Assembly: GCF_963676685.1 (NCBI RefSeq)
Contig: NC_092352.1
Coordinates: 6,820,001 to 6,884,000, forward strand
DNA length: 64,000 bases
Reading direction: 5' to 3'
Source: Mytilus edulis
Taxonomy: Eukaryota
Under the pieces are notes generated by a model, which searched no databases, was not told the origin of the DNA, and saw nothing but the letters and a program-made list of their open reading frames with translations. Shown in pieces: positions 10,501 to 42,414 of the stretch; the stretch's first letter is position 1; each line of letters opens with the position of its first letter. The position numbers and the translations under genes were made by a program.

Positions 10501-11339
10501 ACCCTTCCAGAGAACTCGAGATCATCACAGTTTATTGTAGGGTTCGTGTTGCTTAGTGTTTAGTTTTCTATCTTGTGTTTTATGAACTGTTATTTGTCTG
10601 TTTGCCCTTATATTTTTTAGCCATGGCATTGTCAGTTTATATTCAATTGATGAGATTGAATGTCCCTCTGGTATCTTTGATCCCTGTGTTCCCTTTTTAA
10701 TTAACCAATTGTATCTAAATTGAACATATACTCACATGTGAATCTGTTAGCATAAAGATCAGTTCCTCTATATCTGTAAATGATTACACTTGAAAAAACA
10801 ATATCTGTTGCAAGCTCTCATGTGTTTTTGATAATAAAAAAATAATTGGAACAAGAAACTCCAAGATTGCATGCATTATTCGACTATTGTCATTGCCTCA
10901 AATTTATAACCAAATCACAAAGATTGTCTTTAAAATTAACCACAAGTTTCTGTTCAATTCAACAACATATGGTCTGTATTGGCTCTCAAGGTTAAATAAA
11001 TAGCTAGGGTCATGCTAATTCTAAACAGTTGAAATGAAATATGGTTAGTCTTGTATGATCTTTAATTTAAGTTTCTTGTGATTAATTTGGAGTTCAGTAT
11101 GATGTCCAGTATCACTGAACTAATATACATATTTGTTCAGGGGCTAGCTGAAGGACTTCTCTGTGTGCAAGAGTGTCTCACTGCATTGAAGACCAATTGG
11201 TGGCCTTCGACTGCTATCTGCTCTTTGGTCGGGTGGTTGTCTCTTTGACACATTCCCCATTTCCATTCTCAATTTTATTTTATTTTTAAATTTATTGATT
11301 GCATTAATGAATACTGCTAAACATTATGTCATTATTATG

Positions 11340-12998
11340 GTCATGCCCTGGTCATTTAATGCCTTGCTGTGATGAATGTATTCTTAATTGTCATTCCAAA
11401 TGTACTGGGATAAAAAGTTTAGCTAGTGTAGTAGAAGCAAACATAATGGAAAAATCAAAAGAACCTTTAGAAAAATATATAAACTCCATCTTAGACATCT
11501 TGAATAAAATTGAGACCAACAAAATAGGAAATATCAAAAGAGGAGAACAACAGTGTTACAGCATCAGAGGCAGGATTGCAGAATTTCGAAATAAAATAAA
11601 TGAACATTTAGACGAACTAGAGAATAAGTTATGCCAAGAAGCAGAAACCGTCCTGAATAAAGAAAAATCAAAAGCATCAGATTTAATTACTGAACTCGAA
11701 GAAAAAAAAAGAACAACTGGATACAATAAAGACTATATCCCCACAGTAATGACACATAGTTCAAAACTGCTATCATTCCTAGGTGTACATCAGATTGAAC
11801 AACAAGTACATCAATGTCAACAATATGTTGATGATCTGGAGGATGATGAGAAGACCAAAGAAGTTGACATCAAAATGAAGCAAAATACTGAAATAGAAGA
11901 GACCATCAACAAAATAGGATAGCTTGAATCCCTAGGAGACGTAATAGTTGTTAAAACGCATATATATATACCAATGAATAGAAAAACAGATGTGAAGAGG
12001 GAAGCACAAGTATAAACACGAGAACGATCCAACATAAATATTATGTCCATGAAGATTGAAACAAAGAGAGAGATCAACATTGGGAAGTGGATTAGGAACA
12101 TGCTATGTCTGAGGGATGGTAGAGTTATAGCTATTAAATAGTTTGGTACAGTTAACTTATTTTCTGTTACTAGCAAAATTCAGAAACATTTTGTAATACC
12201 TGGTGAGGCCTACAGTGTTACACAGATCAATCAGTTTACCATTGCCTTAACTTATCCTGGCGAGAAAGCCATTAAGATCTTTAATATGGAGAAAACAAAA
12301 GTTACTAAAGTTATCGATAAAATTAACGGTACCAATTTTCTTGCACCAGATGCGCATTTCGACAAAACATGTCTCTTCAGTGATGCTCGTGGCCAAAATA
12401 TTTGAAATCCAAAGCTTATATAAAAGATGAAGAGCTATAATCAAAGAGGTCCAAAAAGTATAGCCAAATCCGTGAAAGGAATCAGAGCTTTGTATCAAAG
12501 TAGACAGAGTATGCAGGGGTTTGTCATTCGCCAATAATTCTCTGGCTGTAGGTTTAGATAGAGATGACATCCGCATTATAGACCTGGAAGGTAATACACT
12601 GAAGTCAATACAAGTTTGGAGTCAGTCATACCTGTTTCATCTTGTTTACTGTAAACAGAGTAACCTATAGTGATAGTGATGGTAAGGTGGTATGCTCTGT
12701 TGATGATTCAGGAAAACAGATCTTTTTAACAGGACCAAGAGGACTTTGTTCAGATACTTATGGTAACAATATAGTAGCAGACGGTAGATCGAGGAGAATA
12801 ATAGTAATATCAAAAGATGGACAGGGTAGTAAAGTTCTGATTAATCAAGAGAAAAACGGACAGGGTAGTAAAGTACTGATTAATGAAGAGGATGGACTAA
12901 TGTTTCCTCAGTGTATTAGTAAACATAATGAGTCATCAGGTTTTATTGGTGATTACTTAGACAAATACTTGGTAAAATTCAATTTATCATATGAATAA
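11340..12998 (+). pseudogene. TRIM/NHL-like pseudogene, copy 2 (starts mid B-box 2 at the duplication junction)
   Basis: CPGHLMPCCDEC..HSKC half B-box, coiled coil and propeller. Shares copy 1's lesions and adds TAG at 11920, an AT-repeat expansion and a ~15-bp deletion near 12723. Confidence 0.9.
12343..12386 (-). ncRNA. Minimal type I hammerhead ribozyme (duplicate, inside insertion 12316-12492)
   Basis: Identical to 1102-1145 except one substitution in the helix II loop. Confidence 0.88.
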
Positions 12999-13496
12999 GA
13001 AAAACACTGAAGAATATTTTCTATCAAATGATAAAAGGTGTTAGATTCATCACAAGTAAAGAATTTTGGTGTGTGCCTGAATATATTGCGAGAGGAAATT
13101 TAGACCAGTGTCAAGTTAAAAATAAAGTGTAAAGTTCAAACAACTAATCAGAACATTTACGTATATAAAACTATAGATGGAATATGTCTACTATTATGTT
13201 TTTATTGGTAACATAATACTCTCTCTAATGATATTATTGTATTCATTTGTACTTCAGATTTCAACTTAATATTTTTTATACAGCATATAGTTATATATTC
13301 TACAGCTTAAGCTACCTTCAATGGCTACTTGTAGTAGAGCATACATTTAGACTCTCTTTTCCGAATTATATGTCATTCTCTCCTTTTCTTGTTCAAATTG
13401 CTGTTTATACTGTTTATTGCCACACAGGGTTTGTTATTGTGTGATTTGCGTTTTCTACAATTCGTCTAGTACACCAAAGAAAGTATATCTGCACAT

Positions 13497-14792
13497 AAAA
13501 TGACCAGATGCTCCGCAGGTCGCAGTTTTATACGACCGCAGAGATCGAACCCTGAACAGTTGGTGCAAGTATGGACACAACATTTAACTTTGATACAGCT
13601 CTGAATTTGGATTGTGATTAAATAGTTGACACAACATAGGTTTCTGACACAGAATGAATGTGGTCTAAGAACTAAAACTTAAAAACTTAAAATGTTTAAA
13701 TTGGACATTTACCTATTATGGTCCAATATCCAAAATCTAAATACATGGTTAGATGCAGCATATCATAGAACCCTAAGAATTCAATTTTTGATGAAATCAA
13801 ATAATGTTCAATTTTAGACCCTTTAGACCTCAATGTGGACCAATTTGATAACCAGGCCCAAATATTAAAAATCTAAATACATGGTTAGATTCAGCATATT
13901 GAAGAACCTCAAGAATTCAATTTTTGTTAAAATCAAACGAAGTTTAATTTTGGACCCCGATTTGGACCAACTTGAAAACTGGGCCCATAATAAAAAATCT
14001 AAGTACATGTTTAGATTCAGCATATCAAAGGACCCCAAGAATTAAATTTTTGTTAAAATCAAACTAAGTTTAATTTTGGACCCTTTGGAACTTAATGTAG
14101 ACCAATTTGAAAACAGGACCCAAAAATTAAAAATCTAAATACACGGTTAGATTTAGCATATCAAAGAACTCCAATTGTTCAATTGTTTATGAAATCAAAC
14201 GAAGATTAATTTTGGACCCTTTTGGCCCCTTATTCCTAAACTGTTGGGACCAAAACTCCCAAAATCAATCCAAACATTCCTTTTGTGGTCATAAACCTTG
14301 TGTTAAAATTTAATAGATTTCTATTTACTTATACTAAAGTTATTGTGCAAAAACCAAATAAAATGCTTATTCGGGACCTTTTTTGGCCCCTAATTCCTAC
14401 ACTATTGGGACCAAAACTCCCAAAATCAATCCAAACATTCCTTTTGTGGTCATAAACCTTGTGTTAAAATTTAATAGATTTCTATTTACTTATACTAAAG
14501 TTATTGTGCAAAAACCAAATAAAATGCTTATTTGGGCCCTTTTTGGCCCCTTATTCTTACAAAAGAGGGACGAAAGATACCAAAGCGACAGTCAAACTCA
14601 TAAAATTAAACTGTTGGGACTTAAACTCCCAAAATCAATCCCAACCTCCCTTATACGGTCATAAACCTTGTGTTTAAATTTCATAGATTTCTATTTACTT
14701 ATACTAAAGTTAAACCAAATGTCTTCGGACGACGACGACGTCATACCAATATTCGACCCAAAAAATTTCAATTTTTGAGGTCATACAAAAAT
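13497..14792. mobile_element. HINE-like satellite-carrying element, duplicate copy
   Basis: Near-identical to 2271-3566. Confidence 0.65.
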
Positions 14793-15405
14793 AAGATGTG
14801 GCAAGATTGTCGAAGAGACGATGAAACAAAATTCCACCCTCGACCAAATGATGTAGAAATTAGCAAATATAAGTCACTGTAAGCCTTTACCAATGATCAA
14901 AACCTGACGAAAATGTTACACAATTCTAAAGAAAAAAATAATTGCCTGATTCATCTACAAACAATGAATAAAAAACAAATATTATGCTTAATTTTCAACT
15001 ATAGAAGCATGTAACCATCCACAACACAAGCACATTAAAACACACAGCCGAATTAGCCAAAGCCAGTTCAACGCATAAAGTGATGTCACAAATGATTTCG
15101 CAAAAAATAAGATAGAATTAGGATGGAATTCAAGATTAGATTTGTAAGACTTATATAACATTTATTAATAACAATGAAAATTTCATTACTAATTATTTAT
15201 ACTAAAAATAAAGTAATTAGTATCAAATTGTGGTAGTAATTAGATAATTATTTGTATAATCTTGCAATGTCGGTGTTTCTTCGGGAACAATCTGTGAACC
15301 AAATATATCGTATAAATTTCGTTGATCCAAACTAAAATTTAATAAATAAACTGTTTTTATCTTAACACACTAATACAACAGAAAAAAATAAGATTTACAA
15401 CTACA

Positions 15406-17436
15406 TACGACATTCTTATTAAAGACTGGATATTTGAAATTTTTAAAGTTTCAGTGATTGACAAGTCGGGTGACGGAGTTCTCGGACTTAAACTAGAAAG
15501 TCGTTCTACAAATTTTAATTTCTTAGTGTTCTCATGCTATTTACCTTCAGAAAATTCTAATAGAGGACGTGACGCCCAGAGCTTTTTTGCACATTTGCTT
15601 ACTCAAATGTATATGAACTGCGATAGTGATGGTATTTTCCTACTTGGTGATTTTAATTCGCGGATCGGATCCATGTCTGAAATGCTGTTTGAAGCCGACG
15701 AAATTACAAAAAGGAACCAAATAGATAATTGTGTAAACCAGCATGGCCACGAACTTATAGAATTTCTAAATGAATCAAAAAGTGGTGTACTGAACGGTAG
15801 ATTTGCCGACGGGGATATTTATAATTCTATATCGAAGAAAAGGTAAAGCGGTAGTTGACTTTATATGTGTCCCCACCAGGACATGTTTACAGATGTTATA
15901 TACTTTCGAGTGTTAACGGTCCAATCAATTGTCGATGACTTTAAATTACATGATCTTATAGGAAGCAAATCAAAATTACCTGATCATTCAGCTATTGTGT
16001 CGGAATTCAATATTACGCGTCACTGCCTCGCAACACAGACAAAAGATACACGTAGATCTTGTTCTCGTTTTAAACTCAATCAGATCCCGTTAGATTTTAT
16101 GACCAGTGATATTAAACGTACTGCCTTATTGAATTTAATAGAAAAGATTGAACGTTGCAGAGAAACTCAGGACAATGTTGATAAAATTTACACCGAATTG
16201 TGCTCAATTATTTTTTCGGAAATGACAGACAAAATCCCGAAAGTTGAAATTAATGGATCAAAGAAACGCTTTAAGCAGAAAAAACCGTATTGGAATGGCC
16301 AATTAATGGACCTCTGGAACAAAATGACAATCAAGGAGAAAAGTTTACTCGATGGAAAGGTACAAATCGTAAAATTAGAGAGGGATTACGGAACAACTAT
16401 ATACAAGCACGAGATATGTTTGATAAAACATTGCGGTGAACTGAGCGAGCTTAAAGGAGAATGAAAGCTGTAGATATTGAATCGATGACTACGAAGAATC
16501 CTGATGACTTTTGGGAGAAAATTCGAAACCTTGGTCCGAGAAATTCGAAAAGTATACCAGTTGAAATTGTCGATGAATTGGGAAATATTGTAAAAGATGA
16601 ACTGTTGGTGTTTGATAAATGACGAATAGACTTTGAAAATTTATACAACATACATCAGAAGCAACAGTGACGAGTTTGATGATGAACATTAGGACCGTGT
16701 AAAGTCTCATAAGTACCAATTAGAATCTAATATGCAGGACCAACTATTTGCTCCGAATGAATATTTGAATCGCAACATTACTCTAGATGAAGTTAACAGT
16801 ATCGTTATGCACGCCAAATCAAAGTCTGCGAGTGGTTTCGATGAAATCCGATACAGTGTTATGAGATTCCCTGTAGTGATTGAGACATTATTACAGCTGT
16901 TTCAGCTCATTTTGGACACTAGTCTTATACTATCAATTTTGAGGAAAGCTGTCATTTGTCCTATACTAAAGGATACTTCATCAAATACACGGCTGCCTAT
17001 GAACTACAGAGGTGTTAGTCTGCTATCATGTATAAGCAAACTGTATAGTGCTTTCATTAACAAGCGAATTACGCATTATTTAGAAAATCAGGATATACTC
17101 GCAGACGAACAGAACGGCTTCAGAAAAAATCAATCTAGTGAGGATCACATTTACACGCCGAACAGTATTGTCCGTAACAATAAGTCTCTTCTTTGTGCGT
17201 TTATTGATCTTAGAAAATGTTTTGACTCCATAGACAGTGATATGATGCTGTATAAACTACTCATTCACAACATTGACGGCAAACTGTACAACTCTGTGAA
17301 AAGCATCTATCAGAATTCTGAATCTTGTGTCCGATTCAATGGCAAACTTACACGCTGGTTTGACTGTAAATTCGGAGTGAAACAGGGGGACAATTTATCC
17401 CCGACACTTTTCTCAATATTTATCAATGATCTAGTA
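15406..17436 (+). mobile_element. Decayed LINE ORF2 fragment (APE + RT), copy 2
   Basis: Same motifs as copy 1, including NYRGVSLL and FIDLRKCFDSI; retains 16118-16191, which copy 1 lacks. Confidence 0.9.
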
Positions 17437-20400
17437 AATTTAGACAAAGTAATTTTTTTACTTGTGATTTTAATGTCCTCTTGTTATCTGATAATTTTAT
17501 CTTTTAATGAGACTCAATTTCAATAGACAAATTTCGAGTTCGATGCATTTCCGTCAAAAACTTAAGGGGGTCATCACTTCAATTCCAATGTTGAGCGAGT
17601 CGTTGGAAAACTATAATTTTATATAGCATGAATTATTCTTCAAATTGAATTCTCATAATTGACAATCAGCGCTACTGTCATTAGGGAATTGTGATTAAGT
17701 ACCTACAGAACAAACATTATTTCTAGTTTATCCTGCACAATGACAATCACTAAGACGCAGCGGCATGATAAACGTTAAAAATGTAGTGAAACAGGCGATC
17801 CCCTCTATCTGGTAAATGAAGTCATAAAAGCACGCATAATTGACGAGTTTTTTTCTGGTGACGGACAAACTCAAAAGTGGTCTATTGTTAAAGTGGTAAT
17901 CATATGATTATTTTGCTCCTTAAAAAATGCTCTTCTGAGTCGGACCAAGGCTTCCAAAATTTCCTGACGACAGCCAGACATTTTACAAAGAAATATTTTT
18001 GACGGTCAATGATTAGCTGAATACTTAAATGTAACTGAGAGGATGCATAAGATATATGTGCATATTATCCTCGGTATTGTGTCATTTTTCTGTGTATCGT
18101 TATACAGGAACCATCATTGCATCAGTCAGCTTCAGTACCGGGCTTTTCTCATGTTTTTGTTTTTGTTTAAATAATCTATCTTCTCTCTGTGAGTACTCCA
18201 CACTTTGTTAATTAAGGCCATCTTATTTGAAACTGTTGATGACAACTGGCTTTAAATGTAGTACAACTTGATACACGTGATACTTTTCTTTTTGTGTATT
18301 GATTACCTGACCACGTGACTTTTACAACTGATGCGGTATTTATAGATAACATTGAGGAGGCCTAATGAAGGATATTGTTTTAAACCATGTAAAATCTACT
18401 GAACAGTGTTTACATTTTTCTTTGTACACGTTTGCCCATGACGGCAGATTTATAAAGTTCAATTTCAAACAAGTCTTTATAAGAGTCATTTTTTTAATAT
18501 TAAAACAAGAATATTCATAGGACAAGTCAGCTTGGTATACCCAAGCGAAGCTATTCTTGGTGTTTTTACTATATATTTCAATTAAATTTCCCCTTTAAAG
18601 TGCCCCAGTATTTAACACGATGTACAGTGTTAAATAAATAATACATATCTGATATCATACTTATTCATTTATAAATATACTTATTTGAAGAATAACTTAC
18701 CCTTCCGGATCACCTGAGATCACCCCTAGTTTTTGGTGGGGTTCGTGTTGTTTATTCTTTAGTTTTCTATGTTGTGTCATGTGTACTATTGTTTTTCTGT
18801 TTGTCTTTTTTCATTTTTAGCCCTGGCGTTGTCAGTTTGTTTTAGATTTATGAGTTTGACTGTCCCTTTGGTATCTTTCGTCCCTCTTTTAAATATTAGG
18901 AAACTTTGTTAAACTGATTGCTAATTTGAAATAATATATATAAAGTGTAATTAAATAAGATGCTCCGTACACGCTTACATATTTGACCTCGTTACCTGAT
19001 CACCTTTATGTACATTGTTATGCATCATTAGTTCTATTGATAAAGACAAGCTAAGAACACCTCATCAAAGGTAACAAACATGTAATCAGTGAATGATTTA
19101 TGGCTTCAATATAACTTATTGAGGGATAATTGTTTGACAGCTTGTTGTTATTTAAATAAAAGAAAACTTGTTTTTTCTACTTTTTATTGATGTACACAAG
19201 CTAAGGATCAAGCCGTACATTTATGTACCCAGATGATTAGACTTCTTGAGACACTTCAAAGTATCTTAAATATGCTGCATCTGTTGTAATAAACCCAATT
19301 ATGACCAAAATATCTTTCTGAAATAGTATGCCAAAGCGGACATGTCCAAAACCCAAACGAACAATTTTAATGATCGATAGTTGGTCAAAATTGAAATGAC
19401 CGTTTTATGAAATATGCCTTGAATAACAAAAAGTGGCAAACCAATTCTATCTGACCGTTTGAGGCTGAGAGCAGCCGGACTTTTTATGAAAGTTTCGATC
19501 ATGTCTGGAATATATGACCGTTTTGGAAGCCTTATTTTTGACTTAAAGTAGCAATTTAAGATTCTAGATTAACCTAAGTACATCATTGACTATAATATTG
19601 GTTTGAATGACTGATCAATTTTGCAGTTTTTATTTTCTCTATCTCTCTATTTTTATTTACAAGATTATAGCAAAAGGTAACACATGTGTCAAAATAGATT
19701 TTCATAGGCAATTCTCCTATTAAATAAGAAGTATAATAACAATGACAGCTATGATGACTTATTTCTTAGAGTTTGTCTGGCTGATCAACTTTGCTGTTTT
19801 AAGAGTACCTTTTAGGGTCCTATCTGCAATATGGGATGCGTGGTTGCATGGGTGTTTTATTATAACAAAACAAAAGGTATTTATAGTACTTGTATTCATC
19901 CCCTATGTTCTATTTTTAGAAATGCTGTCTGTGTTATTTTGCTGGCAAGTTCAAAACACATATCTTTAACTAGATATTTCAAGAATGGTTAAGGGAAAGT
20001 TTAGTTGCAATCAGCATCACCTTCAATATATTGTAGTTATTGTTAATAAGTTATTGTCCTAAACATGAATGAAATATTTGCCACTGTATCAACAATCGAT
20101 CAATCAGTTCCTGTGATGTGAAGTTCTGACTTTGGTTTGTTTCATTTTTCTTTTTGCACCTATGCTCAGTGCCTTAATATTTTAAAGTTTCTAAATATTT
20201 GTTTATTAGTTTAACAGCAACAAAGATTAATGTAAGCCTACCCACGGCTGGTCAATTAGGCCCATGTGCTCCACTAACTGTAAGATAACCAAAAAAAAAC
20301 CAGTTAAAGGTAACACACAAACACACAATTGTTTAACTTTAGTTAGTTTTCATACTGACCATACATTTGGTGTTCTGGTAATTTTTTTTAAATTTTTCCT

Positions 20401-23400
20401 ATGAATTTTCAAATGTAGTTTTGCACTGTGAATTGTTCTTTCATTCTGAAAAAGTCTGAAGAAATGAAAACCTGGCTAATAACTTTATTTCAACATGATG
20501 TTTAAAACTTGATGTTGCCGCTTATTTGCAATTTTCTAAAAGAAACAATCTGTATATAACCTTCTGTCTGAAAGTGTAAAACATAAGAATATCTAAACAA
20601 GGTATAATGTTGCTATCACATGAAATCAGTCATATATAACAATTACCTTTTTCATTTCAGCTTTATTCAGTGCTGTACCAATCATTATAGACTTTCTACA
20701 TGATGTAGAGGCAAACATCTGACGAACTCTGGATGGACGACACATAACACCCTAACAGTATGTGTTGCAAAAATTCTATACAGTGCATCTTCAAATTATC
20801 ATACATTAAATGGGTAGTAGTGATAAGTTATAGTAACTAAGTCTTGTTAATATGGAAAAACAAGTAGAATCGGTACTATAACATCAATTCACATTTATTT
20901 ATTGATTGACTAAGCAATGTATGATTAAGAAACATGAATTCTTTTGAGGCAATTTAAATGATGAAACAATTCAGAAATAAATATTCTATCACTACCTTAG
21001 TAAGATTAGTCTCAAGAGAAGAATGGACTTCTAAGGTTAAATTAGGGATAAATTTAAGTCATTAGATAATTAATATATAATGGCAGCATATATAACAAAG
21101 CGTGTTACTGACATCTTAATAATCCCTAAGCTGTTTATTTGTGTAGCAATTATAAATGTTCGTCTTTCCTATAACATAATATATAGAAACAATAATCTAT
21201 CTTAAAATATTTTGCAATTTTGTAAACAAATGTAAACTAAACATTAAAAGTATGTTATCCAGGTCTTATCTGGTATCAACTGATACAAGACAGGCAAAAA
21301 GCAAAATCACAAAAATACTGAACTTAGAGGAAAATCAATTCGGAAAGTCCATAATCACATGGCAAAATAAAATAACAAAACGCATTAAAAACGAATGGAC
21401 AAGAACTGTCATATTCCTGACTTGGTACAGGCATTTTCAAATGTAGAAAATACACTGCAGGCCTAAGATAATAAAACTCATCAGTGAAATCGAACTGACA
21501 ATTTCATGGCAAAAAATCAAAAATAACTATACCAGTATGCAAAACAGATGATAGAAAACTAAAGACTTTGAGTCTAGTTAAGTGGTACCATATTTTAGTT
21601 TTTTTGTCAACAACAGAATATACATTTGATCAAAGCCATCACAAAATACATCAGCCTCTAGCCACCATCACTGACAGTGGCTAGGACAATTCTCTGGGCA
21701 AGAGCAAATGCACTGCAGTCTGGATCTCATGAGAAGTGATGGAAAATGTTTCGTTGTAGTCAATAGGACATGAATACACGTAGAGCAGGATATTCTTACC
21801 CTTCCAGAGAACTCGAGATCATGACAGTTTATTGTAGGGTTCGTGTTGCTTAGTGTTTAGTTTTCTATCTTGTGTTTTATGAACTGTTATTTGTCTGTTT
21901 GCCCTTATCTTTTTTAGCCATGGCATTGTCAGTTTATATTCAATTGATGAGATTGAATGTCCCTCTGGTATCTTTGATCCCTGTGTTCCCTTTTTAATTA
22001 ACCAATTGTATCTAAATTGAACATATACTCACATGTGAATCTGTTAGCATAAAGATCAGTTCCTCTATATCTGTAAATGATTACACTTGAAAAAACAATA
22101 TCTGTTGCAAGCTCTCATGTGTTTTTGATAATAAAAAAATAATTGGAACAAGAAACTCCAAGATTGCATGCATTATTCGACTATTGTCATTGCCTCAAAT
22201 TTATAACCAAATCACAAAGATTGTTTTTAAAATTAACCACAAGTTTCTGTTCAATTCAACAACATATGGTCTGTATTGGCTCTCAAGGTTAAATAAATAG
22301 CTAGGGTCATGCTAATTCTAAACAGTTGAAATGAAATATGGTTAGTCTTGTATGATCTTTAATTTAAGTTTCTTGTGATTAATTTGGAGTTCAGTATGAT
22401 GTCCAGTATCACTGAACTAATATACATATTTGTTCAGGGGCTAGCTGAAGGACTTCTCTGTGTGCAGGAGTGTCTCACTGCATTGAACCAATTGGTGGCC
22501 TTCGACTGCTATCTGCTCTTTGGTCGGGTGGTTGTCTCTTTGACACATTCCCCATTTCCATTCTCAATTTTATTTTATTTTTAAATTTATTGATTGCAAT
22601 AATGAACACTGCTAAACATTATGTCATTATTATGTAAAGATACTCATTGAATTTTTTTTGCAAAACTCGGAATAAGACAATAATGAAAAACTGTTTGATT
22701 TTTTATCTATAAGTTTTTAAGATTGATGTTTTTGCAAAAAAATATACTCCTATTAAACCAGATGTCAAATCAACCAATAATTCGCATTTAAAGTTAAGAT
22801 ACATTGCAGTTACATGATTGTGCAAAAATATATAGAATTGTCCACTAAATAATAAGGGACTGCTCAAACATTTCTAAAACCAATAAGCAATTACTAATGG
22901 GCTGGTCAAAAGCAGCCTCAATACAAATGGAATGCACCAATGTTAAATCTACAGAAAAATTATATGCATTCATTGAAGACATTGAAATCAACATCTTATT
23001 AACTGACTAGTCTAACTTTCTTTTGTTGTTGTAAAATAATATTTTCAAATAGAATACTTTTAACAACATGTAAAATATTACTGACTATAAACCATCTTTT
23101 CCAAATGTCACTACCTGGTGTAGAAATTAACTTTACTCTCTATGTAGGATCACCTGTCAACACAATTATATATCTATACTTATCTGTGATCAATGATAAA
23201 AATATCATTTTTGTTTTTTACAAAATGTCTCAAGTCTTTGAATACATCAAAGTAGAAAAATATACAAGGTTATATTTTGAGAGTACAATTTATTTTTGTA
23301 ATGTGGAAAAAGTAAAGTTTTCATACTGCTGTATTGAATTCTTGAGGGATTATTAACACAATAATAATAAGGACATACAAACAAATATTTTGTAACCTTG

Positions 23401-29060: not shown

Positions 29061-29300
29061 GAGAACACAACAGCGCGAAAACCAGAAGACATTTCATCAA
29101 CATATATAGGTTCCGATGAAACAGACACACGCTAGCAAAATCTTGGCAATCAAAATTCTCATAAACTGTTATCACAGAGATATGTCTCGTTTTTTTGTAA
29201 TTTCAATATGACAAATGTTGAAATTAATGAAATGGCAACGCTTTAATATGTAAGTTTTGCAAATATTCGAAGTCATTGAACCATGACTCAAGGTACAAGG

Positions 29301-29922
29301 TGAAGTGCCAACCGTTATTGTAAATAGTTGGCAGATATCAATTATAAAGTCCAAAGTTATAAAACTGTTTTAAAGCCAAAACTTTGAATAATCAAGAATA
29401 AAACTTGTTTGAATTAAATAAAAGCAGCTTTATTAAAATCTAATATCATTAATCATAGTTATGAATCAATTACAATATATGTGAAAGAATTACAGTGTGT
29501 GCTAAAACTGAAAATACCTGAATAGTAAAATCTAGGTCACTTGCTAAAAATCAGCTGTTCTGTCTGGGATCTAATTTGAAACTGACTATACTTTTCTCCA
29601 AACGTTTAAAAGATCAAGTTAATCAATACATCTAAAAATAGTACGTGTGTACACAATATGAAAGTAACCAAAAATGGCCATAAAGTTGACAAGTTCTCTT
29701 TGGGATAATTCTAACATTATGAAAGGATAAATATGGATTACATAGGATGCATTAATAACTTCTGAATAAGGTAATTATGTTGTAACTTTAGAAAATCATT
29801 CCGCATAACAAGCAAGTGTACAAAAGTGAAAGTATGTATGACCTAGTTTCGCGGAAAATACGAATGAATGAAAGTTATTATCAGATTATTAAAAGAATAC
29901 TGCAAATAATCGTGGCACAACA
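29301..29922 (-). repeat. 3' LTR (622 bp)
   Basis: Direct repeat of 37042-37686 with about 20 substitutions and a few indels. Purine tract AAGAGGAGCAG (minus strand, 29923-29933) abuts it. Confidence 0.95.
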
Positions 29923-30100
29923 CTGCTCCTCTTAAAGAAAAAATAATTCTGTCCCTAGAATTGACATAAAATAAATGAATATTCAAATTTCAACATAAGA
30001 GGTATACATACATGTAAAATGTATTTAAACAGTTAAACAATAATATATATATATATAAATCTCATTCGTTTAAAGTTCAATATGATTACAAAGTTCTTTC

Positions 30101-30690
30101 CTATTTTCTTGAATTAACAACACAAACGGAACTTCTGATCTTCTTATCGGGATTACATGTAGGTTGAGACTCTGTTAATTTATTTTTAAGTTTTCTGACT
30201 TCTTCTTTCAGATCTGTCTTTCTTTTTTCCAGTCGCTCAATAAAATTACCAAAACGAAGGCACTCATATCTATGTTTTTCTTCTAATTCTTTAAGTTGAT
30301 TTGCATGTGTTGAGCGTAACTCTATTAATTTATTTTCTAATTCTACAATTTGTTCATCGTTTGGATCAACCTTTACTTCTACAATTTCTATCTCTTCTTA
30401 TTGTATGAATATTTGATAATACATGTTGAGTCCTCAATTTCTGTAATGTCCTCACTTACTATCACCACATAAGGATTACTACTTTTCATACAAATGTGTT
30501 CTTTATTAACGTGAGGGTTTTTAGGATCTTTTATGTGTCTTTGCCACTTAGCATTGCTAATTGTCTTAAAATTACATGTTTTGCATAAAAATGGGACTCG
30601 GTCATCTGAAGCATGTTTAATAATAAAATTTTGAATGGTGTTTTTCGTATTTCCTCGGAAAGAACACTTGGAACATTGAAACAGTACCAT
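30101..30690 (-). pseudogene. Gypsy accessory ORF3: two C2H2/U1-like zinc fingers + coiled coil (~195 aa, disrupted near 30400)
   Basis: FQCSKC..H, linker HASDDRVPF, CKTC-x12-H-x7-H; then in another frame EEIEIVEVKVDPNDEQIVELENKLIELRSTHANQLKELEEKH..LKEEVRKLKNKL..RK*. Preceded by TTTTATTCTTACAG. Confidence 0.7.
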
Positions 30691-30834
30691 AATTCTGTAA
30701 GAATAAAATTAATCAATACTTAATACTTTATAACATTAACAAGTATAAAATATTATTTTTTGTTTTTAAAACAGGAATAAATACATGAAATAAATACATG
30801 TATAAAATATTTAGGTTTACTCTTAACATAACAT

Positions 30835-33800
30835 TTATTCTAATTGATTGAGTTTTCTATTAACCCAGTCTGGTATGTCATTTACATACGGTTTTAATTT
30901 ATCTATATGAACAACTTCAGTTCTAGATTTAAAACAGATTTCATAGACCACTGTGCTCAAAACTTTTGAAATTAAATACCAAGCCATGGGGATTTAAATT
31001 TTTGTCTTATAGTTTTGTCAAAATATACAAGATCCCCTTTCTTATATTTATATTTTGTTAGTCTAGTTTCATGATTCTTTTTAAGTCTTTCAGCATTTGT
31101 CTTGAAATGTTTCCTGGCAATCTGATATACATTTTGAAGATCTAGAGCATATTCATTTTGCCCTTCATATTTCTTGTCTGGTAGTGGATATATCAATTTT
31201 ATAGGAATACTTATTTCTCGGCCTAGCATAAGAAAAGAAGCCTGTAGCAGGATGTGGTGTACTACGATAAGCTGCCAATAGTAGATTGATGTTTACATCC
31301 CAGTCTGTAGCATTCTTGTTGATGAAACTTTTTATCATCCCTGCTAGGGTTCGATTAAACCTCTCAATAAGTCCATTTGAGGCAGGATGGTAAGGTGTTG
31401 TCCGGGTCTTTGTCATTTCAAAAATTCTACAGACAGCCTTAAACAATTCACTCTGGAAATTACTGCCTTGGTCACTTTGCAGTTCTAGAGGTATTCCAAA
31501 TCTTGTTATAAATTCCATTACAAATTTATGTGCCACAATATCAGCTTTTTGGTGTGGCAAAGGATAAACTTCCATCCATCGGGTGAAATTATCTCCTATT
31601 ACCAATAAATATTTATTTCTTCTCTGTGTTTGTGGTAAGGGTCCAATTACATCAATACTCACTCTGTCTAAAGGGTAACCCACTCTATAATCAACCAACC
31701 CAGCTTTTGACTTTCTACTTTTACTTTTAGTACAAATTACACAATTTTCTATGTGTATTCTGACGTCTTTTGTCATTTGATACCAAGTAAAATAATTTTT
31801 CATTTTCTGGACTGATTTCGTTATACCAAAATGACCAGAATATGCAGTACCGTGACAGCTGATTATTATTTCTTTCTTTATAACAGCTGTTACCAGAAGT
31901 TGTAAATGATCTAGTTCACTTATAACGTCTCTCCATTTTTGGTAATTTCTCCACCAATACGGACAAGATTACTCCAATTCAGCCAATAATGTCTTACTGC
32001 TGGGCTGAAACTGGCACATTTATCTCTATCTGGTGTTTCTCCAGCATCCATCCATTTATGTAAAAAGCTGTAATCTTGGTCTTCTTTCTGGAATGTACTC
32101 ATTTCTTTTTCTGTGTATTTAGTTAACCAACTGGAACAATTATCATCATTTGACTGTGTTACATTCCTCATCATAGATTTATCAGTTAAATTCTTTACAT
32201 TATCAACCTTTTTTTCTAAATTCTGACCATTCTTGTTTCCATTCAATGCATTCAGTCCAACTGGAATTAAGATTTCCCTCTTTCAAATGTATACAAAGAT
32301 CATTTTCATTAGAATTTCTAGACATTGCATTAGCATTAGAATGTTTTGTTCCTGGACGGTGTTGAATGTCAAAATTGTATTGACTAAGACTTTCAATCCA
32401 TCTTGGTTACTGTCCCTGAGGGTCTTTAAATGCAAATATCCATCGTAATGATCCATGGTCTGTTCTCAGCAAAAATTTTCTTCCAAGCAAAAAGTGTCGA
32501 AATTGCTGTATAAATGTGACAACTGCAAGTAATTCTCGTCTTGTGACACTATACCTCTGTTGTACCCTGTCTAGTTTCTTTGGTGCGTACGATATAACCT
32601 TTTCTTTGTTTTCCTGGATTTGAGACAGCACAGCGCCAATAGCTATATTAGATGCATCTGTGTCCAATATAAACATTCCGTCTGATAGTGGGTATGCCAA
32701 TATTGGTGATGTTGTCAGTGCGATTTTTAATTTTTTCAAAAGATTCTTGACAGGGCTGTGTCCATTCAAAAGGTACATCTTTTCTTGTAAGCTGACTGAG
32801 TGGAGCTGCAATGTCACTAAATTTGTATTTATAATGCCTGTAATAATTACATAGACCAAGGAATTGTTGTATTTCTTTTGCTGTTGATGGGGCTTTCCAG
32901 CTATCTACGGACTGTAATATCTTTGGATTTGGCTTAATTTCCTCTTTACCTACAACATGCCCTAGGTATAGTATAACTACTCTTAATATATCACATTTAG
33001 ATGGTTTAAGCTTTAATCCTACATTTATAAGTCTTAAAAAAACTTCATCTAGTCTTTTAAGATGTTTTTCTTCATCAGAACTAAAATTTATAATATCATC
33101 GAGTATATCAGGAGTGTTTGCCATTGAAGTCCTTTAAATATCAACTCCATGCATCTCTGGAAAGTGCTAGGGTCATTGCAGAGTCCAAAAGGCATCTTTG
33201 TATACTCATACAGACCATACTTGGTAATAAATGCTATCTTTGGATGGTCTGATTCTTCTACCATCAACTGCCAATAACCACTTTGAAGATCGGGACATGA
33301 AAATATGGACGCTGACACTAAACAATCAAGGCACATATCTATGCGGGGAATAGGGTAGGCATCTGTAATTGTAAGATCGTTGACTCTGCGAAAATCCACA
33401 AACCAGCGCATAGAGTTGTATTTCTTCCAAACAAGTACTACTGGTAAATCCCATGCTGATTTTGATGATTTGATAACTCCCGTCTTAAGTTGATCTTGTA
33501 AGTTTTCAAATTATTCATTCACAAATCCTATTGGTGTCCTTCTAAGTGGTTGTCTTACTGGTGCTGCACCAGCTGTATCTATTCTATGTTTTATAAAGGG
33601 ACATGTTCCAACATCAGTTTTAGAATGCCTTGCTGTTCTTGAGGAGCATATCTGCAAGCTTTCGTTTGGTTTCTTCATTTGCTATGTTTATGCTACTTCT
33701 TTCAAATAAATCCTTAAGATGATCTGGTAATGCAGGAATTTCGGTCTCATTTCTGCATTTATCATTCATCTCCCAGGAATTTTCTGCTTTACAGTTCTGA

Positions 33801-34903
33801 ATGGTGCTATTCCATTCATCAGGAATACGTACTGGTTCATCTGTAAGGTTTATATTCATCTTCAAATTGTGCAACTTGCAGATATTCTTGGTATTATCAT
33901 CCAAAGGTTGTATTGTTTTGGATGTCATCAAATTGTGTAATATTTGTAACCGGATGTAATTCTCCTATTAAGTAATTTCTTTTTAACTGTACAGGGTGGT
34001 CCTCCATATTCACCAGTCTAAAGGGAATGCCTTTTTAAAAGGGTCAACAAGGATTTGTGCAACCATAATTTTACGATTATCCTCAACCACTGGTTGTAGC
34101 ATGGTATATCTGGTATCTATAGCATTAGTATTATAACTCCCACCTAATAATATCATCTAAGAATTGGCTGGAACGGTTACATTTTCAGTTACAATCACTC
34201 TTGCTATCTTGTCATCCCTCTTCCTCTCAGTGTAACACTCTATCTACTTGCCGTCCACCTGCATTCCCTTCTTGGAGTTTATTGTAATGTCAAGTTCATC
34301 TACAATATCACATCCAAGAAGAATTATACTATCACCAATAGGGGCAATATACATATCCCAAGAAAATTCATGGTTCCCAAGTTTAACATTCATCATAGCT
34401 ATTCCATGGGTCTCTATACTTTTCCCTGACTCAGCTACTACTTAGTTTCTGGTCGCTTTCTTTAATATTGATCTCTTTTCCTCAGGAATCCCAAAATACA
34501 GACTGCTATTAAGAACCGTCACTTCCGCTCCTGTATCCATAACAGCTTTGGTCACCTGCCCATTAATACGTATGGGAACTTTAATTGTTGCTGACCTCAC
34601 TCTGTCTATCTGGATAACACAACTAGATTGCCGTCTGCTGTCCATCTTCTCCGTTTTCATCATAGGAGTCATTACAGATGTCGAGGTACTTTGTTCTGAC
34701 GTCAACTCAGACATTACCTCTACAATCTTTGTTTCTCATACAGGTGACAAAGGACTTAAATCCTTTTCTTGTTCTTTATTTCCCTTCTGCATCTTGGATT
34801 CTTTGAAAAGTATATCAATATTAAAATCTGCTGACTCAGCATCTTCATTTCTCATCTCTAAGGCTGACACTTGGCCGACAGTCCCAGCCTCTACTTGTTT
34901 AAA
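30835..34903 (-). pseudogene. Gypsy pol (protease, RT, RNase H, integrase), frameshifted
   Basis: AVMDTGAEVT, DLQSGYWQ, MPFGLCN, LDDII, DTDASNIAIGAVLSQ, HHCC remnants, SDQGSNF, YHPASNGLIERFNRTL, SPWLG, VVHIDKLKPY. No chromodomain seen. Confidence 0.93.
34861..34903 (-). promoter_or_regulatory. Putative -1 ribosomal frameshift signal (U_UUA_AAC + stem-loop) at the gag-pol junction
   Basis: Heptamer 34897-34903 in gag phase, gag TAG follows, 6-nt spacer, AGGCUG/CAGCCU stem. The -1 frame continues into the protease frame. Confidence 0.75.
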
Positions 34904-36546
34904 TAATTCTCTTCAGTGCTATTCTTATATACTGTTGTTTATCATTTTTTCTTATTTGGGCAGTCCCTGCTGTAATGCCCTGCTTGGTTGCATGAATAGC
35001 ATTTATTCGAGTTGGGTTTCTGTTGTTTTTCCCTAGGAATCCATTTATTACTTACTGCTCTCTTCTCTGGTGCTTGATTCATTAGCTTTTTATCTATCAT
35101 TTCTCCAACTGACTTAGTTATATCTTTTGTCATTGACTCTCTCATGTCCCGCCCAAACTGATTAAGTATCTCCTCAGTTATGAACCGCTGGCTGAGCTCC
35201 TGCTTTTCTGCAGGTGAGGTCTTCATAGTCATATTCTTCTTCTTCTTCCATTGTCTCCACCTGACGAATCTGAGTTTTGCCTTTCATTCCATTCTTACAT
35301 GTTAGATGCCAAGTCACCAGGTTTATCGTTTCTTCCATGGTTTTTGGTCGTTTAGTCAAATCATCATATGCCAGACTCTTATCAGGTTATCCAGACAACA
35401 TATATTCAACACTGATATTATTGAACAGCTGTTTGTGTATTCCGGGGTAAGCCTTTCTAACCATGCCTTCTATCCTAGCAGCATATTCATGGATGCTTTC
35501 TTTATATTGTTTCTTGATGGTCAGTAATTCACGTCTGTAGGTCTTTGGAAAATTGTTGTTTTCAAAACGTCTTTCCATTTCTGAATTAAATAGCATAAAG
35601 GAAGTGCGAACTTCTGGAGCTAACTCTGTGGCAAAAGTAAGGGCCTCATCCTTAAGGACTAGACGGATTTCTTCTGTTTGCTGTCTTGGACTCCAGTTAT
35701 TACGTTCTGCAATTATTTGGAACTGTACCATAAAAGTTTTCCAGTCTACTTTACCATTAAAAAAAGGAAGTCTTGACTTGCAAATGATTCTGTTCGATTT
35801 CGAATCGGATAGGCTGTCTCACTAAATCTAGTGTCAGGGTAGTATGTGGAATTTTGTTGATTCCATCTATATGGTTGTTGTTCACCGTTACCATGGTTAC
35901 CATAATTTCTATATTGTGACTGCATACTATGTGCTGAAGGTTGGGACTCTGTAGTCATTGTTTGCCTTGTATTAAATTCTTTCTCTCTTTCAAGTTCTTG
36001 TATCCTTCGTCTAAGTTCCATCACCTCATCTGGTTGATGATTCACGTGATATGTTGATTTGTTCAGATTGCTGTCACTCAGAGAAGATATTCTGGGCCGT
36101 GATAGGTTTTTCATGGTATTTGTCTGATTTGCAGTCATTGGTCGGGTCAAATTAGCATTACTATTTATTGGATTTGAATAAGTACTTACATTTATACTAT
36201 TATTACTAATATTTGTATGTAACCCCAAAGTAGGATATGACTGACTGTTTAATCTAGTTCTAGTTGATCTTATAGTATTAAAGTTTGAAATGCTGGGACC
36301 TGAAATGCTGGGACCAGACATTGAACTATTAAAATTATTAAAACTTGTAATTGAAGGGTAAGTATCAGAAATAATACCACTAGCCCCTGGTGCACTATTC
36401 GAAACAATCTGTGTTTCATTTTCTCTTGTTAAGTCCGAAAAATTGAAATTAACACTACATAAGGCAGCTCTTGGGGACCCTCCCCCTCCATTATTTAAAA
36501 ACATAGGAAGTGGTAGTTGTCTGTGTCTTAAATTCTTATTTAACAT
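34891..36546 (-). pseudogene. Gypsy gag, frameshifted
   Basis: Capsid-like QFQIIAERNNW and KQYKESIHEYAARIE; nucleocapsid knuckle CYSCNQAGHYSRDC. Confidence 0.88.
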
Positions 36547-36608
36547 ATACCAGCTGACTGACTTAATACTTAATTTCAGTTACCCTTAATGTTATTAAAA
36601 TATTTTAA

Positions 36609-36915
36609 GGAAAAGTACACCTTGAGTTTCAATAACTCTTAGTGCTCAATAATTTATTTATGGAAAAAATACACCTTGAATTTCAATAACTCTTGGTGTT
36701 CAATAATTTAGTTATGGAAAATACACCTTGAATTTCAATAACTCTTGGTGTTCAATATTTTATTTATGGAAAAATACACCATTGACTTTCAATAACTCTT
36801 AGTGCTCAATAATTTATTTATGGAAAATACACCTTGAATTTCAATAACTCTTGGTGTTCAATAATTTATTTATGGAAAATACACCTTGAGTTTCAATAAC
36901 TCTTGGTGCTCAATA
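36609..36915. repeat. Six tandem 52-54-bp units in the Gypsy 5' leader
   Basis: GGAAAATACACCTTGAATTTCAATAACTCTTGGTGTTCAATAATTTATTTAT repeated. Confidence 0.93.
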
Positions 36916-37026
36916 ATATCATATGTAAACCACAGTTTGAGTTTCAATATAAGCTTCTTTGTATGTTGTTGTTCTTTTTTGTTATGTATTACTTTTTTCC
37001 TTTTTTTTTTTTTAAATGTTCTTTTT

Positions 37027-37039
37027 ACCGCTGCCACCA
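37027..37039 (-). promoter_or_regulatory. Primer-binding site, tRNA-Leu type
   Basis: TGGTGGCAGCGGT 2 nt inside the 5' LTR; complementary to the ACCGCUGCCACCA 3' end of animal tRNA-Leu(AAG/UAG). Confidence 0.85.
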
Positions 37040-37041
37040 AT

Positions 37042-37686
37042 TGAAGTGCCAACCGTTATTGTAAATGGTTGGCAGATATTATACAAATATCAATTATAAA
37101 GTCCAAAGTTATAAAACTGTTTTGAAGCCCAATCTTTGAATAATCAAGAATAAGATTTGTTTGAATAAAATAAAAGCAGCTTTATTAAAAGCTAATATCA
37201 TTAATAATAGTTGAATCAATTACAATATATGTGAAAAGAATTGCAGTGTGTGCTAAAACTGAAAATACCTGAATAGTAAAATCTAGGTCACTTGCTAAAA
37301 ATCAGCTGTTCTGTCTGGGATATAATTTGAAACTGACTATACTTTTCTCCAAACGTTTAAAAGATCAAGTTAATCAATACACCTAAAAATAGTACGTGTG
37401 TACACAATATGAAAGTACCCAAAATGGCCATAAAGTTGACCAGTTCTATTTGGGATAATTCTAACATTATAAAAGGATAAATATGGATTACATAGGATGC
37501 ATTAATAACTTCTGAATAAGGTAATTATGTTGTAACTATAGAAAATCATTCCGCATAACAAGCAAGTGTACAAAAGTGAAAATATGTATGACCTAGTTTC
37601 GCGGAAAATATACGCCGGGAAATACGAAGGAATGAAAGTTATTATCAGATTATTAAAAGAATACTGCAAATAATCCTGGCACAACA
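37042..37686 (-). repeat. 5' LTR (645 bp)
   Basis: Direct repeat of 29301-29922. Confidence 0.95.
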
Positions 37687-37691
37687 CAAGG

Positions 37692-39428: not shown

Positions 39429-40004
39429 AAGGACAAGGTATGATAAGGCCCGTTTTATGGCTGCCCCCTCCGCTATTTTCTCATTTTTTAAAGTCTGGTT
39501 CGGAAAGCTACTTATTATGTTAAAATATTCCCTGAAGTTTGTTTGGATGAACTTTAAAACCACTAATATTTGCAACTGGGTGAGGTGAGGTGGGTAAGCT
39601 TTCTGTTATTATTCAAATACTGTAATTATTTTTCTCTTTAAAGGTATTCAGTACAAATAATTTAAGTTTTTAAGTGCCTGCGCTAACGTGACCCAGGATT
39701 TTTTTTATTCCACAGTCATGAGAACTGTTTATGCTGTCTCAATCGCAATAATTGTCCTCGGGTCATACAGGCGCACGCTATTAAATTTTAAGAAACAATG
39801 GCAAAAAATCTCTACTTTTGACGTTTTTGAAGCTCTTTTACCCCCTCCACTCACCCATTTTCTGAAATTAATGGTTTTGAAGTTCATCCAAACAAACTTC
39901 AAACTAAGGGATTATTTTAACGTGATAAGTAGCTTTCCAAAACAACATTTTAAAGATGCAAAAAATAGGGGGCCAAAAAACAGGACTTATCGTACCTTGT
40001 CCTT
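39429..40004. mobile_element. Old MITE with ~165-bp imperfect TIRs
   Basis: AAGGACAAGGTATGATAAG.. / ..CTTATCGTACCTTGTCCTT and GAAGTTTGTTTGGATGAACTT / AAGTTCATCCAAACAAACTTC. Confidence 0.8.
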
Positions 40005-40062
40005 TATACTAGTTCCTTCCTACATATTAGATACAATTCTTTACCTTTGTTTTCTCAAGATC

Positions 40063-42414
40063 ATGGCATCCAGTAAACCTATACCATGTGGGCCTTGTCA
40101 TGAAGGGCAATTAAACACAAAAGCTGAATTCTGGTGTTACAACTGTGATGAAGGATTATGCTCAGTATGTTCTGGTCATCACAAAAGATCTAAATCATCA
40201 CGTGATCATAAAACCATTGATATTAAAAGGTATAAACCATCCATACAGGCTATTAATACAGTATGTGACAAACATGGTCAACAGTTCAACTTGTATTGCC
40301 CCAGTCATTTAATTCCATGCTGTGATGAATGTATTCCTACTAGTCATTCAAAATGTACAGAAATAACAAGTTTATCTAGTGTAGTAGAGCAAACCAAAAT
40401 GGAAAAATCAAAAGAATCTTTATATAAAGATATAAATTCCATCTTACGCATCTTAAATAGAATAATAACCAACATATCAGGAAATATCAAAAGTGGTGAA
40501 CAACAACGGGACAGCATCAAGAGCATGATTGAAGAATATCGAAAGAAAATAGATAAACATTTAGACAAACTACAGAAGAAGTTATGCCAAGAAACAGACA
40601 CCATGTTGAATAAAGAAACATCAAATGCATCAGATTTAATTAATGAAATTGAAGAAGAAAAAGAAAAATTAGATGGAATGAAGGAATATCTCCAAACCGT
40701 CACAACATATAGGTCAAAACTACAAGCATTTCTAGGAGTACATCAGATTGAACAACAAGTACACCAATGTCAGCGATATGTTGATGATCTGGATGAAGAT
40801 GACAGGTGGAAAGAATTTGACATCAAAATGGAGCAAAATGATGAAATAGAAAAGACCATCAACAAATTAAAATCGCTCGAATCCCTAGGAGAAGTGACAG
40901 TTGTTAAAACAGAAATCCCTATGAATCGTGAAATAGGTATGAAAAGGGAAGCACAAGTAGAAACTCGAGAAAAAACAAATTTACACAACATGAACATCAA
41001 AATTGGCACAAATATAAATATCAACATTGGGAATTGGATAGTAGACACGATTTGTCTGATGGATGGTAGAATCTTAACAGCTAAACAGTATGGCACAGTT
41101 AGCAGTCAGAGCTCAGACATAAACAAGTCGATTTTTGTTTTTGACTTAAATAAGTCGAAACATGTATTTATTATAAAAATGTAGTTTCAATTTTAGACTT
41201 ATCTAAGTCAGAAAATGACAGACTTGTTTAGGTCTATTTATGTTGGTGAAAAAACTTAATGTTACTTTGTGGCCAAACTACACCACCTATGACAGCAAAA
41301 ACCTGTATGAGAGTTCACAAGGACTTGAGCTATCTATATCTAATAATTTAATTGAACATCCTTACTAAACACAGATGTTTTTCCTCATTAAGTGTGATTC
41401 CAGGTGGTTGCATTGTAAGGTTAATTAACATTATCTCCGATTTTTTAGACTCTCATTCATATTTTTCTTTAGAAGACAAAGCATTGGCTTTCAATGTTGT
41501 CATTATTTGATTTAGATGCATGACCTCCTTATAAGTATGCGTGGGTCTTGAAGTTAACCAATTTCGATCACTCATCGACTTGTAGGAGTCGATATTTGCA
41601 ACTTTTTGATTCTGGTCAATTATTTCTTGTTTAACAATATTGGACTTATTCAAGTCGTAATTTGTCTGACATTAAAGGGAGACAAATCCTAAAACTTACA
41701 AGTTTAGACCTCTATGAGTTAAAAGCAGATTCAGACTTATTTATGTCTGAGCTCTGACTGGTTAGTCTACTCTCTTTTGATGGCACGCTTAAGAAACATT
41801 TTGCAATATCTGGTAAAGCCTGGAATGTCACAGAGATCAACCGGGAAACTATTGCCATAACTTATCCTAAGGAGATGGCCATTAAGATCTTTAATATGGA
41901 GAACGAAACAGTTACCAAGGTTATCAAATTAGACAAAACATGCAAGGGTTTGTCATTCTCCAATAATTCGTTAGCTGTAGGTTTGGATACAGCAGAAGTC
42001 CGTATCATAGACGTTGAAGGAAATACACTAAAGTCAATACAAGTTAAGAGTAAATCACCACTGGATCACCTTATTTATTGTAATGGCAGAGTAATTTATA
42101 GTGACTGGAGAGGTAAAGCAGTATGCTGTGTTGCTGGATCAGGTGAACACATCTGGCAATATACACACGATTTATCAGAACCAAGAGGACATTGTATAGA
42201 TACGTATGGTAACATTATAGTAGCAGACAGAGCAACAAATAGAATGATAGCAATATCAAAAGATGGACAGAGTAGTAAAGTATTGATTAGTGGAAAAAAG
42301 GGTGGACTGGAATTTCCGGAGTGTATTTGTTTTAGTAAGGATAGTGAGTCATCAGGTTTTATTGGTGGTTACTTAGGCAGATACTTAATAGAATTCAGTT
42401 TGTCTTATGAATAA
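40063..42414 (+). pseudogene. RING-less TRIM/NHL-like gene (B-box1, B-box2, coiled coil, beta-propeller) interrupted by a MITE; 562 aa if restored
   Basis: MASSKPIPCGPC..WCYNCDEGLCSVCSGHH..DH and CDKH..YCPSH..CCDEC..HSKC. Splice acceptor TTTGTTTTCTCAAG just before the ATG. Joining 40063-41102 to 41766-42414 gives a 1689-nt open frame. Confidence 0.92.
41103..41760. mobile_element. 658-bp MITE, CAG-starting TIRs, 5-bp TSD GTTAG
   Basis: TIR CAGTCAGAGCTCAGACATAAA perfect for 21 bp; GTTAG at 41098-41102 and 41761-41765; repeated GACTT-N4-AAGTC subterminal palindromes. Confidence 0.93.

Follow-up and report, generated by a model that had tools for sequence, protein, structure and literature searches.

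A third ORF with zinc fingers and a coiled coil lies behind a splice acceptor in the env position of a mussel Gypsy clade

We report that a Ty3/Gypsy retrotransposon of the mussel Mytilus edulis carries, in the env position, a third ORF (ORF3) that encodes two C2H2-type zinc fingers and a coiled coil, and that this ORF3 is an accessory gene kept by selection in a clade of bivalve Gypsy elements. The splice acceptor just ahead of it works in RNA at the predicted base, with host donors. The window that was analysed is a stretch of 64,000 nucleotides (NCBI RefSeq assembly GCF_963676685.1, contig NC_092352.1, positions 6,820,001 to 6,884,000 of the forward strand), and positions below are those of this window unless a locus is named.

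The window element and the ORF3 protein

The element lies on the minus strand; it is complete in layout but decayed, and the window copy itself is dead. Its assignment to Ty3/Gypsy follows from LTRs of the TG...CA form (5’ LTR, 37042..37686, from LTR alignment; 3’ LTR, 29301..29922; 92% identical as a pair), a 5-bp target duplication on their flanks (37687-37691 and 29296-29300), a primer-binding site (PBS) TGGTGGCAGCGGT (37027..37039, with its 5’ end at 37039) that we take to be of tRNA-Leu type, a polypurine tract (29923..29933), and gag followed by PR-RT-RH-IN in that order (Pfam on window fragments). The PBS sequence TGGTG(G/A)CAGC is common to those ORF3 families in which a PBS was located. 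Gag, PR, RT, RH and IN are broken, every one: gag (Retrotrans_gag and zf-CCHC by Pfam) spans 34942..36546, and pol, with many stops and frameshifts (Pfam and the ORF list), spans 30835..34900, where the start is approximate and the TAA stop lies at 30837-30835. ARAGORN finds no tRNA in the window. Elsewhere in the window we noted a tandem duplication of 11.2-11.3 kb (about 400-11000 and 11650-22000, 99-100% identity, with a third partial copy near 40600-42300), which is either a recent duplication or an assembly artefact, and a 507-codon frame on the plus strand (39661-41184) with B-box-like Cys/His clusters and a coiled coil that looks TRIM-like by eye.

Between the pol stop at 30835 and the polypurine tract, the first-pass annotation of this DNA had described a sense ORF with two fingers and a coiled coil, and our reading of the ORFs, Pfam and AlphaFold all confirm it. 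The ORF runs on the minus strand from an ATG at 30690 to a stop at 30103-30101, a span of 590 nt; ahead of it, as annotated, a pyrimidine tract closes with AG at 30696-30695, 4 nt before the ATG (acceptor feature, 30695..30716). The window copy is read in two frames (30690-30388 and 30397-30101), so the annotated single disruption stands, although its position shifts slightly upstream, from near 30400 to about 30417, where comparison with a sister copy places one frameshifting deletion. The N-terminal domain (30424..30690; Pfam and structure model) comprises two C2H2-type fingers and two short strands, and matches Pfam zf-H2C2_5 (E 3e-7, 30.3 bits against a cut-off of 27); finger 1 of this copy has lost one His ligand by substitution. 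The part past the frameshift (30101..30397) holds an acidic linker, the coiled coil and a basic KKIRSSV tail; in Pfam this second half gives weak coiled-coil family matches alone. The same annotation held that ORF3, with neither signal peptide nor transmembrane segment, is not env, and we agree: it contains no hydrophobic segment (best 19-residue Kyte-Doolittle means of 0.83 and -0.15) and is therefore not env. Nor is there an F- or gB-type ectodomain, the ~190 residues being modelled as fingers plus one long helix and matched by Pfam to C2H2 fingers.

An alignment of 30 relatives keeps C6, C9, H21, H26, P33, C36, C39 and H52, followed in order by an S-x-x-P-Y strand, the acidic linker, the coiled coil and the basic tail. 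We class the fingers as C2H2 on the grounds that C6, C9, H21, H26, C36, C39 and H52 are invariant or nearly so and that a beta-beta-alpha fold is modelled; finger 2 has an irregular final ligand in families A and B (the window copy and its closest sisters constitute family A; further families include B, C and D). In 21 of the 30 relatives the second finger is a long H-x6-H form and there is no canonical linker: the connection between the fingers reads xxxxVP[FY], as against the TGEKP type of classical arrays. The finger domain of a sister protein (its first 89 residues) is modelled as one compact unit (pLDDT 92, pTM 0.79), which, when fitted to DNA-bound tandem arrays, gives Z scores of 2.7-4.4 and rmsd values of 3.1-6.4 Å over both fingers. 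Its structural neighbours are C2H2 proteins, mostly DNA-binding, at Z of 5.5 or below (best VIA Z 5.5); Foldseek against PDB and BFVD returned nothing at E 0.001 or below. The Pfam matches of ORF3 are to ordinary C2H2 families, and none of the 25 listed is an RNA-binding finger family.

The coiled coil of the sister protein is an AlphaFold helix at residues 111-179, and in a homodimer model residues 110-177 of the two copies pair as a parallel coiled coil (score 0.48; best control 0.00; runs agree in at least 92% of contacts, with pLDDT of at least 61). The mark used for a homodimer is reached by 21/30 microbial pairs and 0/23 monomers, and by 17/29 eukaryotic pairs and 0/30 monomers, bearing in mind that a coiled coil may pass it by likeness to solved coiled coils. 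ORF3 is predicted by this modelling to dimerise via its coiled coil; the structure prediction suggested by the first-pass annotation has thus returned a compact two-finger domain and a parallel dimer. A basic tail of the K[IMV]KSVV type, which we take to be a nuclear localisation signal (NLS), is found in 21/30 relatives. There is also an [RK]xL-F end in 13/30, presumably a cyclin-docking motif, and a nearby [ST]P-basic site in 7/30, which we assume to be a CDK motif; the [RK]xL-F and SP motifs are absent from the window’s family. To judge from its sequence, the ORF3 protein is probably nuclear.

Conservation and selection

A DNA search of the 1.37-Gb genome gave at least 14 matches at 12 or more places, the window included. 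Both halves of ORF3 are present in nine sister copies, three of which hold it as a single open frame of 192 codons; among the remaining family places, one has just a diverged piece and one, with an internal deletion, has no ORF. Among internally deleted copies, two (L008 and L058) are without most of pol yet have ORF3 and the LTR end, and one (L013) is without ORF3. A protein search returned 49 matches to ORF3. Outside the window’s family, an integrase lies directly upstream of the homologue in 14 of 15 loci examined (two of which overlap), and ORF3 homologues stand behind integrase in six further families, at 27-46% identity. In families A, C and D, the ORF3 frame is open in copies whose LTRs are 99.0-100% identical; ORF3 therefore travels with recently mobile elements. 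Intact copies and linkage to this pol lineage had been named as a check on the gene, and both are found. In an integrase tree of 46 rows (a quick search with midpoint root, in which we assigned the ORF3-type labels), all nine finger plus coiled-coil rows, from seven families, fall in one clade (SH-aLRT 99) that also takes in one truncated copy and one long branch. By this quick tree ORF3 marks an old integrase clade, and is not the one-off captured host fragment that the annotation had weighed against its own reading.

A profile search of 1.84 billion proteins brought up many more full-length relatives of 200-300 aa; the named ones are from Mytilus and, where the finger domain carries a longer tail, from Haliotis. 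In a long-branch element (L129, 7961-9220) this finger domain precedes a long tail rich in proline, as in the Haliotis matches; the element may link ORF3 types. Scans of metagenomes and viruses yielded nothing of use on linkage of ORF3 to pol beyond Mytilus, a search for longer fused forms gave one protein, from Mytilus, and an atlas look-up with an ORF3 homologue gave unnamed clusters at 0.90-0.92 together with generic C2H2.

Purifying selection is evident in the substitutions. Of 22 ORF3 pairs, 18 have dS above 0.1, and in these the NG86 method gives dN/dS of 0.10-0.31; the other four are near-identical and so uninformative. We also made a conservative count, in which transitions have a weight of 4 and every multiply hit codon is taken as non-synonymous: this gives 0.19-0.43 in six of seven pairs (Fisher p 2e-9 to 0.021) and 1.07, not significant, in the family D pair. 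Third codon positions have the most changes in 7/7 ORF3 pairs. The frames are open across seven families, with synonymous sites saturated. The dN/dS check that the annotation had named therefore comes out well below 1, with one of seven pairs not significant by the conservative count. We reject both one-off capture and neutral passage on the homologue loci, the dN/dS values and the integrase clade. It is extremely improbable, according to these data, that ORF3 is a passively carried host fragment or a degenerate env: a host origin is plausible from the resemblance of the finger pair to host multi-finger proteins, and one of seven pairs is without constraint by the conservative count, but this reading is largely refuted by frames open in seven families at saturated synonymous sites with dN/dS well below 1, by the conserved acceptor, and by the lack of a signal or membrane segment.

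Another observation to emerge from these comparisons is that sister copies diverge more in ORF3 than in RT or the non-coding LTR in 9/10 pairs of families A and C (pairs that share a reference); in a family C example, ORF3 differs by 6-7% and RT/LTR by about 1-2%. This excess suggests that older ORF3 variants have been exchanged between subfamilies. The hint of module exchange spans ORF3 and the 3’ end of integrase in both families.

To view the same slot more widely, we surveyed 40 of 150 integrase matches (L101-L140), a sample that favours long frames and includes several near-duplicates. A long sense ORF follows integrase in 36 of these 40 related Gypsy loci, one of them fused to pol, and most have a Cys/His finger pair near the start, followed by a TatD, BTB, coiled-coil or low-complexity tail. 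Pfam on 20 survey frames found TatD in seven and BTB in four; further frames were labelled TatD from a visible motif or from close kinship. One Pfam-confirmed TatD frame is fused to an integrase with a PHD finger. The ORF3 types group by integrase lineage in the tree, and hhalign of the window-type finger pair against those of TatD-, BTB- and other ORF3s gives probabilities of 5-69%. A simple acceptor rule holds ahead of 23/37 first ATGs, versus 372/3785 ATGs inside pol. In databases such ORFs are entered as C2H2 or tatD genes of the host, or as fused to integrase; NCBI has one as a host tatD.

The ORF3 acceptor in RNA

In all 15 copies of families A-D with a located start, YAG lies 1-4 nt ahead of the ATG (4/19 starts were not located). 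The ORF3 stretch is present in 20 of 24 listed sequencing runs. We searched for splicing in seven runs from seven studies, as assembled contigs only, which drop rare forms, and with one run recorded as RNA. In four of the seven, a contig ends exactly at the acceptor (30695/30694), the very place at which spliced RNA had been expected to end, and three of these continue into at least 28 foreign letters. Two of the foreign ends map to single genomic sites at the ends of host exons, where the genome continues with GT (AG/GTTAGT and G/GTAAGT); the third has no match in the genome. Three long loose ends, compared with the element loci examined, gave no match, and two of them map to host exons. Unspliced read-through at the acceptor occurs in two runs, and in the sole run recorded as RNA the contig stops at the ATG, with no join.

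The host exons joined to the ORF3 acceptor in two runs are L065 (G000:C6:89365393) and L066 (G000:C2:79790830). The first encodes a Nudix-like peptide, which we take to be NUDT9-like; its reading frame would not match that of ORF3. This assembly has no family A copy in the 20 kb downstream of either exon, so the joins presumably stem from intronic insertions, absent from this assembly, that are carried by other individuals. On the opposite strand, an antisense donor AAG/GTAATT lies in the LTR (29771-29772 on the plus strand, with the same site in the 5’ LTR and at L045:741), and in all four runs checked, contigs leave the LTR at or near this donor into many different sequences, which suggests that antisense LTR exons are joined to host genes. 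A cyclic 88-nt contig in one run (X4) is without splice ends and was set aside.

The annotation had ORF3 expressed from a spliced subgenomic RNA: use of the acceptor is borne out, whereas the donors that could be mapped are host exons and none of the element’s own was seen. In the contigs of the seven runs there is no join from the element’s own LTR or leader to the acceptor, the reference for this donor search covering 36583 and an LTR copy and leaving out the stretch between PBS and repeat array. As to the candidate donor proposed at 36583 (AGG/GTAACT, 36578..36586 on the minus strand, cut after AGG), the window does contain G/GTAACT, and 5/5 copies examined have GGTAA(C/T)T, but no RNA join from the site was seen and we regard it as unsupported; the site also looks like a final, degenerate repeat unit of the leader. 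A donor-like TTA/GTAAGT in the LTR has GT in six, GC in four and is absent in one of the 11 LTR copies found. We infer that a spliced ORF3 message would arise from the element’s own 5’ end.

Leader hairpins, possible functions and known systems

In the leader, between PBS and gag, a 52-nt unit is repeated about 6.6 times to form an array (36572..36949); sisters have 10-16 units, and the number across family A is 6-16. Six 29-nt hairpin cores begin at 36909, 36857, 36805, 36751, 36699 and 36645, each laid out as 5 bp, an AA/AA loop, 5 bp and a 5-nt loop; one by one they fold weakly (z -0.6 to -1.7). Family-specific hairpin arrays occupy this interval in the window and in the leaders of L045, L051, L053, L057, L101 and L104. 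Family B has a related unit in which the loop-closing pair is swapped from the U-A of family A to G-C, the family D array has the same hairpin layout in unrelated sequence, and the family C leader has bulged hairpins (z -2.2 and -3.4). Pairing is kept in 60/69 variant cells in family A (56 units), 6/7 in D (12 units) and 2/5 in B (6 units), where chance would give 0.33-0.4 and, the units being related, cells are not independent events. Many of the pair-keeping changes use G.U, and this pattern of variation points to RNA structure; a reading of the repeats as DNA palindromes (TTGA...TCAA) fails across families. The array is, we infer, the best candidate target of the ORF3 protein. We found nothing that ties ORF3 to the hairpins, and Gag may bind them instead: arrays are present also in relatives with other ORF3 types, so the hairpins may be Gag packaging signals.

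Our leading reading, offered tentatively by analogy and at rather less than an even chance, is that ORF3 may be a nuclear, dimeric regulator of the element’s own RNA, of the CERV or Rev kind, with RNA binding and export or stabilisation of unspliced RNA as its putative activities. The protein would be made from a spliced message that uses the acceptor ahead of its ATG, would enter the nucleus and dimerise through the coiled coil, and would bind the element’s own RNA through its zinc fingers, with the leader array as the leading candidate target; it might then help unspliced genomic RNA to be exported, stabilised or packaged. We favour RNA as the ligand because the finger geometry departs from that of DNA-bound arrays, the H-x6-H finger comes without a canonical linker, and the hairpins vary in a pair-keeping manner.

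The nearest competitor, possible but on the unlikely side, is that ORF3 binds DNA as a dimer and serves as an activator or anti-silencing factor, which would act, like VANC, on the element’s own LTR or leader repeats as DNA and use the acidic linker as an activation region. A finger pair, an acidic stretch, a coiled-coil dimer and an NLS-like tail are a transcription-factor layout, the closest structures are DNA-binding C2H2 proteins, the leader repeats are near-palindromic and tandem like VANC targets (PMC5735166), and a protein that outpaces LTR and RT in 9/10 pairs under purifying selection fits an arms race; however, the repeats vary in favour of sense-strand G.U, which is relevant in RNA and not in DNA, and the fingers pack unlike tandem fingers that read DNA. 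Improbable, in our estimate, is a protein adaptor, in which the fingers would bind proteins and ORF3 would antagonise a host silencing factor or tie its element in with the cell cycle, nuclear import or integration sites. That 13/30 relatives have a cyclin-docking-like end and 7/30 a nearby [ST]P-basic site, and that sister clades fill the slot with finger plus BTB or finger plus TatD, as if with swappable effectors, speaks for it; the window’s family has neither the RxL-F nor the SP motif, and no partner is known.

Returning to the RNA regulator, a broader and doubtful extension is that a large, old invertebrate Gypsy lineage might consist of complex retroelements whose env slot holds a spliced, modular regulator (a finger pair with a swappable coiled-coil, BTB or TatD part), the finger-coiled-coil protein and hairpin array described here forming a family-specific, co-evolving Rev/RRE-like switch that subfamilies exchange with one another. 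A regulatory gene is known in few LTR retrotransposons, with CERV as the worked-out example. The third gene described here is conserved, under selection and not an env; it characterises an entire clade of mussel elements that have moved recently, comes with a candidate RNA target array, and offers several natural protein/hairpin pairs in which to study export of unspliced RNA, or evasion of silencing, by simple retroelements. For annotation, it matters that such ORF3s are mislisted as host genes and that the acceptor traps host splicing from intronic copies.

CERV, from the C. elegans Ty3/Gypsy element Cer1, is made from a spliced mRNA and needed for export of genomic RNA; it has 517 aa, gag-derived exons and a C4-type loop, with no homologue reported outside Caenorhabditis (PMC10309623). 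Like ORF3, it is a non-env ORF in the env position with a spliced message, and it has a candidate NLS, a leucine zipper and a cysteine-rich finger (PMC10309623); self-association of ORF3, from the homodimer model (0.48 versus 0.00), would extend the likeness. Compared by description, ORF3 differs in its 190-260 aa, its own ATG behind the acceptor and its two C2H2-type fingers. HIV Rev relies on an arginine-rich helix together with an export signal; ORF3 has zinc fingers, and its RNA binding and export are putative. Rev/RRE nonetheless resembles it as a small oligomerising protein from spliced RNA paired with a structured RNA in the unspliced RNA, the ORF3 target being a proposed one (PMC10309623).

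VANC of the Arabidopsis VANDAL elements is likewise a transposon-encoded accessory protein, associated with non-coding tandem repeats that differ between families; it belongs to a DNA transposon, has DNA targets and is of another protein family, whereas the mussel repeats vary like RNA hairpins (PMC5735166). Errantivirus env occupies the same Ty3/Gypsy slot, and ORF3 is without its signal peptide, transmembrane segment and F/gB ectodomain (PMC13524379). In the literature searched we found neither the ORF3 family nor the array described, nor any Gypsy ORF3 of the TatD or BTB type, although Repbase reports, subscription journals and supplements may mention them; the accessible text of a mollusc LTR survey (PMC6238403) has no match for ORF or zinc, that of a metazoan env survey (PMC13524379) none for zinc finger, ORF3 or C2H2, and the accessible main text of PMC5408684 lacks the words zinc, TatD and mollusc. 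The last of these describes Juno and Vesta, LTR retrotransposons of bdelloid rotifers, in which the env slot likewise holds third ORFs particular to each family, among them coiled-coil types and a nuclease; according to the paper such ORF3s are as a rule expressed by way of spliced RNA. They differ from the mussel protein in being DEDDy, GDSL, TM or CC proteins (PMC5408684). Non-env third ORFs are thus already known, and the mussel finger plus coiled-coil ORF3 adds a further form to them.
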